A stretch of 15,050 bases of DNA from a virus (IMGVR_UViG_2713896729_000010:1-15050), one strand, 5' to 3'; numbered from the stretch's first letter, positions 962-12,716 are shown. Program-made: numbers and translations. Notes: a model not told the origin generated them from the sequence alone.

Positions 962-1839
962 AAACGCCCACCATTCCCACCCTTCTGGGGCCGGACGGCA
1001 TGACATCGCTGCGCGAATATGCCGGTTATCACGGCGGTGGCAGCGGATTTGGTGGGCAGTTGCGGGCGTGGAACCCACCGGGTGAAAGTGTGGATGCAGC
1101 CCTGCTGCCCAACTTTACCCGTGGCAATGCCCGCGCGGACGATCTGGTACGCAATAACGGCTATGCTGCCAACGCCATCCAGCTGCATCAGGATCATATC
1201 GTCGGGTCTTTTTTCCGGCTCAGTCATCGCCCAAGCTGGCGCTATCTGGGCATCGGGGAGGAAGACGCCCGTGCCTTTTCCCGCGAGGTTGAAGCGGCAT
1301 GGAAAGAGTTTGCCGAGGATGACTGCTGCTGCATTGACGTTGAGCGAAAACGCACGTTTACCATGATGATTCGGGAAGGTGTGGCCATGCACGCCTTTAA
1401 CGGTGAACTGTTCGTTCAGGCCACCTGGGATACCAGTTCGTCGCGGCTTTTCCGGACACAGTTCCGGATGGTCAGCCCGAAGCGCATCAGCAACCCGAAC
1501 AATACCGGCGACAGCCGGAACTGCCGTGCCGGTGTGCAGATTAATGACAGCGGTGCGGCGCTGGGATATTACGTCAGCGAGGACGGGTATCCTGGCTGGA
1601 TGCCGCAGAAATGGACATGGATACCCCGTGAGTTACCCGGCGGGCGCGCCTCGTTCATTCACGTTTTTGAACCCGTGGAGGACGGACAGACCCGCGGTGC
1701 AAATGTGTTTTACAGCGTGATGGAGCAGATGAAGATGCTCGACACGCTGCAGAACACGCAGCTGCAGAGCGCCATTGTGAAGGCGATTTATGTCTATCAT
1801 CTCACCGTAGTTGCCCGCATCGTTCGCCAACTCCACTGA
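958..1839 (+). CDS. B: lambda-type portal protein B, 5' part, interrupted by the island; residues 1-277 are portal, the last 17 codons (1788..1839) are island-derived
   Basis: [33 protein letters not shown]...[11 protein letters not shown] matches the lambda portal protein as I recall it. The frame diverges after the core at 1787 and stops at 1839. Confidence 0.93.
1780..1792. repeat. attL core (left copy of the 13-bp direct repeat)
   Basis: AAGGCGATTTATG; phage-identical sequence extends leftward (gccattgtgaaggcgat). Confidence 0.8.
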
Positions 1840-1915
1840 AACCCTTGCTGCGTCTGGAATGTCGTTTTCCATGCTTTTGATGACCGTTCATCACCCTTCC
1901 AGTTTTTCGCGGTTT

Positions 1916-1970
1916 TGTGTATTGCAATGTGTATTGCAAATTGGCGATCGGGATGGGTGTGTATTGCAAA
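1916..1970 (+). repeat. Three direct copies of GTGTATTGCAA, candidate integrase arm-type binding sites
   Basis: tgtgtattgcaa (1916-1927), tgtgtattgcaaa (1928-1940), gtgtgtattgcaaa (1957-1970), between the core and the int start. The same motif recurs near attR. Confidence 0.6.
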
Positions 1971-1987
1971 TCTCTTGAGGGCTTTTA

Positions 1988-3229
1988 ATGGCTATTGAAA
2001 ACAAACTCAGTGACAAACTGTTAAAGAGTCTTGTCGGAAAACGGCAGGACAAACAAAAAACAATAGCGGATGGGCGCGGGTTGTCTGTGCGTGTAAGCAT
2101 GGTTGGGGGGATCAGCTTTGTTTTTTACTATCGTCTTGGTGGCAGGGAATCCCCTCCGGTATGGCTTACACTTGGTCGCTATCCTGACATGTCTCTTGCA
2201 ACGGCCAGGCGCATGCGTGATCAGTGCCGTGAATGGCTGGCTGAAAATCTGGACCCCCGCAGGCAAATAAAACTTGCTGCCGAAAAAACTATGCAACCAG
2301 TGACCGTAAGGGATGCGCTGTTTTACTGGTACGACAATCACGCCACAACAGCCAGAAAAGAGCATGAATATTTAATAAAACGATTTGAAAAGCATATCTT
2401 CCCCTATATCGGTGATATGGCTATAGAACAGTGCAAATTACACACATGGCTTACCGTCTTTGACAGGATCAAAAAAAATGCGCCTGTTATGTCTGGTGCA
2501 ATTTTTCTTGATATCAAACAGGCGTTGCGTTTTTGTCGCGTCAGGCAATACATCGCGTGCGATCCCTTTGGAGATATTAACGTAAGTTATGTCGGGCGCT
2601 CATCCGGTATAAGGGATCGCGTTCTTAATATCAATGAAACCGCTGATGTATGGTCTTATGCTTACGGTAATAATTTGCTAACTCTGTCATCAATATATAA
2701 CCGAAGAATAATGGTTATCTGCCTGGTGTTTGGTTGCCGACAGCAGGAGGCGAGGCTATCCACCTGGGACGAATGGGATTTAAAAAACTGGGTATGGACA
2801 GTCCCAAAAGAGCACAGCAAAAACAAGGAGGCTATAGTAAGGCCTGTTCCTGACGGAATAAAACAATGGATCGTTAATCTTTACGCAGAAACAAAAAATC
2901 GCGGTTATGTTGTCGGTTGTGCTTTGCAAAGGGCGACAATAACAGGGGCTGCAAACAGAATATGCAGGCGTCTTGGTCATGATACTAATGGCTTGTGGTG
3001 CATACATGATTTCAGGCGCACATTTTCCACTACGCTTAATGATATGGGGGCGGATCCTTATATTGTCGAACTTCTTTTAGGTCATAAAGTGAAAGGGGTT
3101 GCTGGTGTTTACAATAAAAGCAGGCATATAAAGAAAAAACTTGAGGTGCTTAATATGTGGGTTAATTACCTTAATACGATAGCAGGATTTAACAACAACG
3201 TTATCGAGCTTAATAAAGAGGTGGTGTGA
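1988..3229 (+). CDS. int: Tyrosine site-specific integrase, P4-like family
   Basis: 413 aa. N-terminal arm-binding-like region (GRGLSVRVSMVGGISFVFYYRLGG...YPDMSLATARRMRDQ). C-terminal catalytic motifs CRQQEA (R), HDFRRTF (HxxR) and GVYNKS (Y nucleophile). SD gaggg 6-7 nt upstream of the ATG. Confidence 0.95.
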   Translation: MAIENKLSDKLLKSLVGKRQDKQKTIADGRGLSVRVSMVGGISFVFYYRLGGRESPPVWLTLGRYPDMSLATARRMRDQCREWLAENLDPRRQIKLAAEKTMQPVTVRDALFYWYDNHATTARKEHEYLIKRFEKHIFPYIGDMAIEQCKLHTWLTVFDRIKKNAPVMSGAIFLDIKQALRFCRVRQYIACDPFGDINVSYVGRSSGIRDRVLNINETADVWSYAYGNNLLTLSSIYNRRIMVICLVFGCRQQEARLSTWDEWDLKNWVWTVPKEHSKNKEAIVRPVPDGIKQWIVNLYAETKNRGYVVGCALQRATITGAANRICRRLGHDTNGLWCIHDFRRTFSTTLNDMGADPYIVELLLGHKVKGVAGVYNKSRHIKKKLEVLNMWVNYLNTIAGFNNNVIELNKEVV

Positions 3230-3230
3230 T

Positions 3231-3488
3231 ATGGCAATTTATTCTCTTGTTGATGAAAACGATTTGCGCACAATGAAGGACATTGATCGGTTCATTCGTG
3301 AAAAAGAGTGCATAGCACTTACCACGCTGGCAAACTCAACACGCTGGAAAATGGAGCAGGCAGGTAAATTCCCGCGACGTATCAAGATCGGTGAACGTGC
3401 TGCAGGGTATCGACTTTCAGAGGTTCAGGCATGGATCCGTGGTGAGTGGCATCCTGGATGGAAACCTGGAAAAACAAAACAGCAATAA
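3231..3488 (+). CDS. alpA: AlpA-family HTH regulator / excisionase-like protein
   Basis: 85 aa. Translation ...IALTTLANSTRWKMEQAGKFPRRIKIGERAAGYRLSEVQAWIRGEW resembles the AlpA/Vis helix-turn-helix. Start is 1 nt after the int stop, so likely translationally coupled. Confidence 0.85.
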   Translation: MAIYSLVDENDLRTMKDIDRFIREKECIALTTLANSTRWKMEQAGKFPRRIKIGERAAGYRLSEVQAWIRGEWHPGWKPGKTKQQ

Positions 3489-3501
3489 CCAGTAAATAAT
3501 G

Positions 3502-3524
3502 CCCCTCATCACGAGGGGTTTTTT
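3502..3524 (+). terminator. Rho-independent terminator after alpA
   Basis: CCCCTC-ATCAC-GAGGGG stem-loop followed by TTTTTT. Confidence 0.75.
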
Positions 3525-11530: not shown

Positions 11531-11612
11531 TGCTGTCCGATTATCTGATGGAAACTGCCGGAAACGTACCGGATAAGTTGCAGCCGAATAAAGATAAGTA
11601 ACGTAGTACGCT

Positions 11613-11894
11613 ATGACTGAATCCGAAATACTGCGATTAATCCGCCGTGCTTGTGGAATCAGCAAGCAGCATGACGAACAGGCCACGCAGCCGGACAGCG
11701 TGACCGCAGATAATTATGTGCGTGTAGTGGCTGAGGTGATGCGCCGTGACGGTATTGAGCTTAACGGCGTGGATATGCGCAACATACGAACAAGAGTCCT
11801 TGAGTTGCTGGCATATCGTCGCCGTTCTCAACAACGGAGGGAGAGCGCGAAAAATACTTACCAGTGGAAGAAGCCGGAACGATTGCGGCGGTAA
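11613..11894 (+). CDS. Hypothetical basic protein (93 aa) downstream of the small terminase gene
   Basis: ORF with Arg-rich C-terminus (RRRSQQRRESAKNTYQWKKPERLRR). Weak SD and no recognisable family. Confidence 0.45.
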   Translation: MTESEILRLIRRACGISKQHDEQATQPDSVTADNYVRVVAEVMRRDGIELNGVDMRNIRTRVLELLAYRRRSQQRRESAKNTYQWKKPERLRR

Positions 11895-12146
11895 CTTGCT
11901 GATATTCCCGATAACGCAAAATTGCGCTGGCTGACTTGTTGCATTGCAAAAAGTTAAGCAGGAAGGCACGGCCTGTAAGATGGGATGCAGTAAGTAGTTC
12001 AAGGCTACCTTGTGCTGGCACGCACAGTTAAGCCGTCGGTGCTGGATATCCCCCACTGGGGGAAAAGCTGGCTACATCCCTCACATCTGAGGACTGATAA
12101 CGCGACATTGCGCTGGCTGGCAAAGTGCAAAATTGCACGATGGCCT

Positions 12147-12290
12147 AACCCATTGATTATTTCGAAAACCTGCAATGCAGGAAATCGGGGAAGTAAGCCT
12201 AAGCTATTGATTGTTTCGAAAACCCCCATTGGGGGATGTCGGGAAAGTAAGACTAACCCATTGATTCTTCCACAATCCTCAATTTGAGGA
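12147..12290. repeat. Tandem ~54-bp repeat, 2.7 copies, each with a different 13-bp palindrome
   Basis: Conserved unit (C/G)C(C/T)ATTGATT.TT.C.A.AA.CC followed by cctgcaAtgcagg (12169-12181), cccccaTTggggg (12223-12235) and cctcaaTttgagg (12277-12289). Confidence 0.75.
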
Positions 12291-12608
12291 GGCCGGAACG
12301 TCTACATAGCTGCATCGCCGTAATGATGATTCAGCCCACCAGCCAAATCAGCACAGCAACGACAGAATAGCCCGACACAGAAAAACCACGAATATGGGGT
12401 TTTTGTTATGACATGGTCATGATGACCACTCATACAAAACAGGTAAAGCCCACCAGCCTGATTAAAGGTTAACCGGAAAAAAGCCAGGTATCCAATCTCG
12501 ATATGGGGATCCCTATATCGACATTAACGCCCACTAAAACTGTGCATATATGCATAGAAAAAGCATCCACCAGCTTTATGACGGATGCCGCTCATCTTAT
12601 AAATAATC

Positions 12609-12630
12609 GTGTATTGCAGTGTGTATTGCG
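12609..12630 (+). repeat. Two further direct copies of the GTGTATTGC(A/G) arm-type motif near attR
   Basis: gtgtattgca (12609-12618) and gtgtattgcg (12621-12630), about 75-95 bp from the right core, same orientation as the three copies near attL. Confidence 0.6.
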
Positions 12631-12703
12631 ACTCCTTTAAACGATAGGTCTGAGCATTCGTAATGTACTGTTTTTAAATTTTATTTTTTCCTGTCTTTTC
12701 ATA

Positions 12704-12716
12704 AAGGCGATGTATG
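12704..12716. repeat. attR core (right copy of the 13-bp direct repeat)
   Basis: AAGGCGATGTATG; phage-identical sequence continues rightward (gtatgccgccaccattgag). Confidence 0.8.

Follow-up and report, generated by a model that had tools for sequence, protein, structure and literature searches.

Phage satellites that lie within the late genes of their helper prophages were defined as helper-embedded phage-inducible chromosomal islands (HE-PICIs) by Tommasini, Mageeney and Williams (2023, NAR Genom Bioinform 5:lqad036, PMC10111431), whose account describes 491 such elements at 14 sites in nine lambda-type late genes, with 97% of them in A, B, C and E. One site group of that account, B:Phage_portal_2:241, contains 11-kb E. 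coli elements with the identity block 'aaggcgat', occupies at least ~100 rows of the element table (a figure derived from at least 200 string occurrences in that table), and has helpers located at tRNA-Arg or icd. Here we analyze IMGVR_UViG_2713896729_000010:1-15050, a viral stretch of 15,050 nucleotides (hereafter the window), in which a satellite-like island interrupts the portal gene of a lambda-like prophage. This element, 10.9 kb long (1780-12711), is very probably an HE-PICI of the B:Phage_portal_2:241 group, with a cycle of excision and packaging that would resemble those of the founding HE-PICI and of Gram-negative PICIs. Both the arrangement and the integration site are real and already known, having been published in 2023.

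The founding HE-PICI, Eco567.11capE (11capE), resides in prophage 50icd of E. coli NRG857c at site E:Phage_cap_E:80. As published, it shares with the present island a co-oriented position in a helper late gene, disruption of that gene without replacement, a capsid gene of its own and the same proposed cis-regulatory logic. It differs in targeting the major capsid gene through a 10-bp block, whereas the present island targets the portal gene through an 8-bp block, and in being stated to have no terS (PMC10111431), whereas the present island carries a cos site and a Nu1-type terS. EcCICFT073 and other Gram-negative PICIs (Fillol-Salom et al. 2018, 2019, cited in PMC10111431) are described as 10-15 kb long, with the same unidirectional int-alpA-primase order; a lambdoid helper packages them by the cos mechanism, and a capsid gene is frequently present. 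In contrast to the present island, EcCICFT073 is stated to lack terS, and classical PICIs are described at chromosomal housekeeping or tRNA sites with helper contact in trans only, rather than inside the helper.

Satellite P4 has an integrase of the same broad clade, a D5/P4-type primase, an Icd-like gene and AlpA-type regulators, but it uses a tRNA gene site and a P2-like helper. A P4-like identity was rejected for the present island, as its host element is lambdoid rather than P2-type and no psu, sid or delta homologues were seen in Pfam or RefSeq annotation. Regulated gene integrity, or 'active lysogeny', is also known from phi10403S in Listeria comK and from the skin element in B. subtilis sigK. 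There, as here, a gene is split without replacement sequence and restored by precise excision, but in the present case the split gene belongs to the helper phage and the switch would presumably serve the satellite, not the cell.

The split portal gene and its junctions lie together in one gap-free block, 829-12933, and consist of the following parts.

829..957, + strand: 3' end of the helper head-tail joining (lambda W-like) gene; the contig block begins here
958..1787, + strand: 5' fragment of the helper portal gene, codons 1-276 plus 2 nt, from the translated open reading frame (ORF)
1780..1787, + strand: attL identity block AAGGCGAT, the crossover region
1788..1839, + strand: 17 island-derived codons and a stop, fused to the cut portal
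12704..12711, + strand: attR identity block AAGGCGAT
12712..12933, + strand: continuation of the helper portal gene from codon 277, ended by the contig end

The ORF at 958..1839 follows the N-terminus of a lambda-family portal protein up to ...QSAIVKA and then changes to 17 foreign residues and a stop, with 1788 as the first island-specific base; in the closed genomes considered below, RefSeq labels this 5' fragment 'phage portal protein, missing C-terminus'. Portal reading resumes in frame at 12704-12933, with the continuation MYAATIESELDTQSAMDFILG... beginning at 12710. The 8-bp block AAGGCGAT stands at both junctions and extends, as AAGGCGAT(T/G)TATG, to 13 bp with one mismatch; beyond the TATG that follows this mismatch the flanks of the two junctions are unrelated, and the island between the identity blocks measures 10,924 bp. 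When the flanks are spliced at the 8-bp block (...GTGAAGGCGATGTATGCCGCC...), they form a single open frame of 350 amino acids with one continuous Pfam Phage_portal_2 match (residues 32-349 on profile positions 2-303, E = 1.3e-73). The island itself supplies no replacement portal 3' end. The sequence statements of an initial annotation of the window, among them the switch at 1788 and the in-frame resumption at 12704/12710, all agree with the ORF translations and profile searches made here.

The mismatched base immediately 3' of the block is T with the island arm in attL and G with the portal arm in attR. Since this mismatch segregates with the island arm versus the portal arm, strand exchange is placed within AAGGCGAT. 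The island tyrosine integrase has recombined an island attP with GTG-AAGGCGAT-GTATGCC inside the portal gene of the lambdoid prophage. The predicted circle junction (attP) reads ...TTTTCATAAAGGCGATTTATGTCTAT..., also written ...CTTTTCATAAAGGCGATTTATGTCTATC..., and the predicted repaired portal (attB) reads ...GTGAAGGCGATGTATGCC..., also written ...ATTGTGAAGGCGATGTATGCCGCC.... The initial annotation had argued that precise excision at the block would rebuild the portal gene. This logic holds, and the same reasoning was already stated for the element family in PMC10111431.

The window was compared with the published member Eco10269.11.B_Phage_portal_2_241. Its published attL is found exactly at 1724-1886 (163/163) and its published attR exactly at 12653-12806 (154/154). 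The window copy shares with this group, as published, the target codon, the aaggcgat block near Phage_portal_2 position 241 (residue 276 of the rebuilt portal falls near this profile position), a size of ~10.9 kb, the orientation, and a doubled TGTATTGC motif in both arms; it differs by a private 1-base deletion in terS and a short contig, and otherwise in nothing of substance. Judging from the att-flank identity to a published member, the integrase probably belongs to the monophyletic HE-PICI clade. The initial annotation had known of no described satellite with its attB in a helper portal gene; this claim falls, given that the B:Phage_portal_2:241 group was published in 2023 with at least ~100 rows and with junctions identical base for base. 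Related members occur in Edwardsiella, and PMC10111431 also reports members in Arsenophonus. A literature search for later experimental work on HE-PICIs gave only citations of PMC10111431. The window adds one more instance to a group whose concept, att site and at least ~100 rows are in that account, and the published interpretation was independently re-derived from raw sequence; it is no discovery.

The gene content of the island was called by Pfam scans together with the RefSeq annotation of the 99.95%-identical island in the closed genome of E. coli JNE23-011 (locus L001), mapped by an offset of 16909.

1988..3229, + strand: tyrosine integrase (Pfam Arm-DNA-bind_3, Phage_int_M, Phage_integrase)
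3231..3488, + strand: AlpA, excisionase/activator family (Pfam Phage_AlpA, E = 5e-14)
3545..4123, + strand: Bro-N domain protein of the 'Bro zone' (Pfam Bro-N, E = 5e-20)
4457..4762, - strand: YlcI/YnfO-family protein (RefSeq in L001; no Pfam match)
4953..5150, + strand: Icd-like cell-division inhibitor (RefSeq in L001; no Pfam match)
5143..5741, + strand: three small hypothetical genes, 5143-5328, 5328-5519 and 5520-5741 (ORFs, RefSeq hypothetical, no Pfam match)
5759..6058, + strand: DUF4222 protein (Pfam DUF4222, E = 4e-23)
6055..7809, + strand: P4/D5-type primase/helicase of the replication zone (Pfam D5_N, DUF5906, Pox_D5)
8158..8409, + strand: hypothetical gene (RefSeq in L001, mapped by offset; no Pfam match)
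8406..8855, + strand: single-stranded DNA-binding protein (Pfam SSB)
9072..10112, + strand: island major capsid protein, lambda E family (Pfam Phage_cap_E, E = 1e-41)
10122..10463, + strand: island head decoration protein, lambda D family (Pfam HDPD)
10475..10858, + strand: second AlpA-like helix-turn-helix protein (Pfam Phage_AlpA, E = 1e-8)
10883..10948, + strand: cos site, with the exact lambda cosN 12-mer GGGCGGCGACCT at 10915-10926
11060..11601, + strand: small terminase subunit, Nu1 family, frameshifted (Pfam Phage_Nu1)
11613..11894, + strand: hypothetical gene (ORF, RefSeq annotation; Pfam scanned)

The order int-alpA, Bro-N, primase and capsid-decoration-terS reproduces the four-zone plan of Gram-negative PICIs, with a length in their 10-20 kb range, an int-alpA pair, a Bro zone, a primase zone and a late packaging zone. 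As in HE-PICIs, a prophage late gene is disrupted with no replacement sequence, and int, alpA and primase are co-oriented with the interrupted gene, all three being on the + strand like the portal. The named island genes all follow the direction of the helper late operon except the YlcI/YnfO-family gene, the sole annotated minus-strand gene of the island. The capsid and decoration proteins are 42% identical to the helper capsid protein (E) and 38% identical to helper D over 78 residues, respectively. Their presence, and the absence of a portal, had been noted in the initial annotation and is borne out by the Pfam matches; no portal, protease or large terminase was found among the island ORFs by Pfam or in RefSeq annotation. 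A capsid-forming PICI (cf-PICI) was rejected, as the island has only capsid, decoration and small terminase genes and no portal, protease or TerL.

The 66 bp of the cos site share 95.5% identity with the cos sequence that precedes nohD in the helper prophages of JNE23-011 and Z0117EC0116 (locus L002), and beyond this stretch the downstream sequence that would serve as cosB diverges and is adjoined by the island's own Nu1-type terS. The intact 180-residue TerS allele of JNE23-011 is 36% identical to helper NohD, with the C-terminal half best conserved in the alignment and the N-terminal half poorly conserved. Lambda Nu1 binds DNA through its N-terminal half, whereas its contacts with gpA are made by the C-terminal half. 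Because the TerS N-terminal half and the cosB region diverge from those of the helper while the C-terminal half is conserved, this comparison suggests a satellite-specific cosB/TerS pair that would recruit the helper large terminase.

A doubled TGTATTGC motif is found once in each att arm.

1918..1937, + strand: doubled TGTATTGC motif of the P' arm, beginning ~132-134 nt from the crossover centre
12610..12629, + strand: doubled TGTATTGC motif of the P arm, with half-sites beginning 97.5 and 85.5 nt upstream of the crossover centre

The doubled form TGTATTGCnnTGTGTATTGC has exactly these two matches in the window, co-oriented, compared to none in 200 shuffles. As a hallmark of HE-PICIs, PMC10111431 describes two co-oriented copies of a doubled motif, tgTGTATTGCantgTGTATTGCa, on either side of the attP centre, 81 +/- 2 bp upstream and ~132 bp downstream of it. 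The downstream spacing of the window copy fits the published value. The P-arm motif ends ~78 nt before the crossover centre, and the upstream fit is approximate and depends on the reference point used in that paper. A third TGTATTGC half-site, at 1960-1967, precedes the int start codon by 21 bp and may have a regulatory role or serve as an arm-type site. In a consensus scan, which is weak evidence, no terminator-like hairpin appeared between the stop of the cut portal (1839) and int (1988). The same kind of scan returned a bidirectional terminator-like hairpin, GCCCCTCATCACGAGGGGT followed by a T-run, at 3501-3519, directly after alpA.

The distribution of the element was surveyed in 5,426 complete E. 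coli genomes, with the integrase counted at a threshold of at least 95% nucleotide identity. The integrase was present in ~65 genomes, always in single copy, while the attL portal-island junction was found in 64 and the attR island-portal junction in 59. The agreement of these three counts shows that the portal location is the rule, with practically every copy in a portal gene. It also led us to reject an incidental portal location, which the initial annotation had said would follow if the island were routinely found at non-phage chromosomal sites. The portal half of the junction queries occurred at ~4,500 places in ~3,180 genomes, so that, set against the island junction counts, ~1.4% of such portal genes are occupied. 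APEC O2-211 and MS 85-1 are examples of strains that carry the island in an intact helper.

Two closed genomes supply the helper context. From end to end, 829-12933 aligns with JNE23-011 at 99.84% identity (18 mismatches and one 1-base gap), and in Z0117EC0116 the 829..957 segment aligns with the gene that immediately precedes the portal gene and is annotated 'phage head-tail joining protein'. In both genomes, RefSeq shows two portal pseudogene halves around the island, within a late operon of nohD, large terminase, W, the 5' portal fragment, the island, the 3' portal fragment, S49 protease, D, E, FI, tail genes and J; the early region is DLP12-like (rusA, quuD, essD-rrrD-rzpD). The initial annotation had described a satellite island in the portal gene of a lambda-like prophage. 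Its island anatomy stood, whereas the lambda-like context is not readable from the window beyond 829-12933 and comes from the closed genomes. Between the window and JNE23-011 the island differs by 4 single-nucleotide polymorphisms and 1 indel in 10.9 kb, compared to 14 differences over 1,189 positions (98.7-99.1% identity) in the portal flanks. An island more conserved than its flanks would fit its recent transfer between diverged prophages; recombination in the flanks would fit as well.

By analogy with 11capE and Gram-negative PICIs, the following cycle can be proposed. Upon prophage induction, the composite of helper and island would excise and replicate as one unit, and helper late transcription, antiterminated by Q, would run through nohD, terL, W and the cut portal into the co-oriented int and alpA. 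Excision of the island would then yield an intact portal gene and a circular island, which would replicate with its own primase and be packaged from its own cos. The island Nu1-type TerS, with its divergent DNA-binding half, would direct the helper large terminase to the island cosB, and packaging would proceed into heads built on the helper portal, protease and tail, which the island capsid and decoration proteins may join. With its portal gene interrupted by the integrated island, the helper would be without heads until the island leaves, and island packaging would need the very portal gene that it repairs. The closest experimental parallel is 11capE, for which mitomycin C was reported to cause composite excision and replication followed by precise satellite excision in 42-98% of composite copies (PMC10111431). 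A satellite in a helper portal gene is a parasite within a parasite. Its position would let it control the assembly of helper heads in cis, while its replication and late transcription would come passively.

Several points weigh against this cycle. The published induction experiments concern 11capE and none are described for the portal-site group; 11capE yielded no virions or plaques; and many helpers are described as looking truncated, possibly leaving their HE-PICIs stranded (PMC10111431). The reconstructed attP junction is absent from IMG/VR, JGI metagenome contigs and the complete E. coli genomes, a result that is uninformative either way, and there is no sequence trace of the excised form in the collections searched. 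The helper of the source genome is not visible, as the contig stops at 829 and 12933. Read-through transcription from the late operon is a hypothesis, the promoter and terminator scan being a consensus match only. Finally, terS is frameshifted in the window by a 1-base deletion at ~11470 (A5 versus A6) that swaps out the C-terminal ~40 residues. This deletion occurs in none of the 56 complete E. coli genomes with the region, all of which have A6, and it reflects either an error in sequencing the homopolymer or a mutation private to this copy that inactivates the gene.

The missing attP junction, the frameshifted terS, and the published lack of virions from induced 11capE together with the many truncated helpers would also fit a stranded dead-end insertion, in which a single past integration left a fossil that inactivates a decaying prophage and is inherited vertically or by whole-prophage recombination, with no active cycle. 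We consider this quite unlikely. The other island ORFs are intact and are annotated complete in closed genomes, the islands of the window and of JNE23-011 share 99.95% identity while the portal flanks reach only 98.7-99.1%, and PMC10111431 lists the same island in helpers at both tRNA-Arg and icd. Related members are reported from Edwardsiella and Arsenophonus, and the sister element 11capE is described to excise precisely on induction. Island identity, varied helper sites, members in other genera and 11capE excision point to recent and repeated mobility.

It is very unlikely that the island is a host-beneficial or anti-phage insertion that locks the portal and blocks lytic production, rather than a satellite that uses the prophage to spread. 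Integration certainly leaves the portal gene without function for as long as it lasts, and PICIs in general are said to interfere with their helpers (discussion of PMC10111431), but a cos matching helper cosN, a Nu1-type terS and capsid and decoration genes are packaging functions that are sensible only for helper-mediated transfer, and no defence-system genes were noticed among the island ORFs in Pfam scans, no dedicated defence-gene search being part of the analysis. The chance of an assembly artefact, with portal halves and island wrongly joined in a fragmented draft, is negligible: four N10 spacers do make the window a scaffold, and some of its pieces, such as mokC/sokC at 1-818, are unrelated, but both junctions lie within the gap-free block, which is colinear with closed chromosomes (99.84% identical to JNE23-011), is covered over at least 80% in 53 complete genomes, and carries junction strings equal to independently published ones, excluding the mis-join that the initial annotation had named as a possible refutation and placing both portal fragments on one molecule.

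If the element is an HE-PICI with the cycle proposed above, excision from the portal site could do more than delay the helper and act as a compulsory step at which the repaired helper portal is passed to shells encoded by the island, giving satellite-specific capsids, possibly of another size, through replacement of the capsid protein and not through scaffold remodelling. We regard this extension as conceivable but unlikely. It concerns the portal-site subgroup, whose elements, unlike 11capE, carry a cos, a divergent Nu1-type TerS and their own E- and D-type proteins. Published work describes the capsid genes of other Gram-negative PICIs as dispensable for transfer.

Within the Bro zone, a GTG-initiated ORF of 356 amino acids (4080-5150, + strand) of odd composition is absent from RefSeq annotation and overlaps both the minus-strand ylcI/ynfO-like gene (4457-4762) and the Icd-like gene (4953-5150); it is probably spurious. 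Immunity repressor RNAs are assigned to the Bro zone in PMC10111431, and an Rfam scan for P4-type immunity RNA in this zone found nothing at gathering score inside the island.

The remainder of the window lies outside the gap-free block. Four runs of exactly 10 N, at 819-828, 12934-12943, 13064-13073 and 13674-13683, mark the window as a scaffold of five contigs whose adjacency is not assured.

1-818: chromosomal mokC/hokC toxin with sok antisense RNA, adjoining an IS4-like IS421 end
13074-13673: part of a lambda J-type tail-tip gene, 600 bp long and 95% identical to helper-prophage J
13684-15050: fragment of a tail-fibre gene, 98% identical to prophage tail fibres of other E. coli

The first piece has no connection with the prophage; it matches sok (Rfam RF01794, 436-588, 122 bits) and is 100% identical to the mokC/sokC locus of many E. 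coli genomes. A 120-bp piece at 12944-13063 had no match in the helper loci of JNE23-011 and Z0117EC0116, and whether this piece, 13074-13673 and 13684-15050 belong to the split-portal prophage cannot be told.

We also scanned genomes representing one per species. The attL island arm had no matches in this set, while the doubled motif, with 18 specified bases, had 51 matches where ~17 are expected by chance. Many of the other matches among the 51 are probably chance, but exact matches in representatives of Erwinia, Xenorhabdus, Kluyvera, Rahnella and Arsenophonus (loci L003, L005/L039, L006, L013, L019, L023, L029, L034, L035, L045 and L050) look genuine and may mark further HE-PICIs or relatives. 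Two of these, L005 and L039, lie on one chromosome of Xenorhabdus bakwenae.

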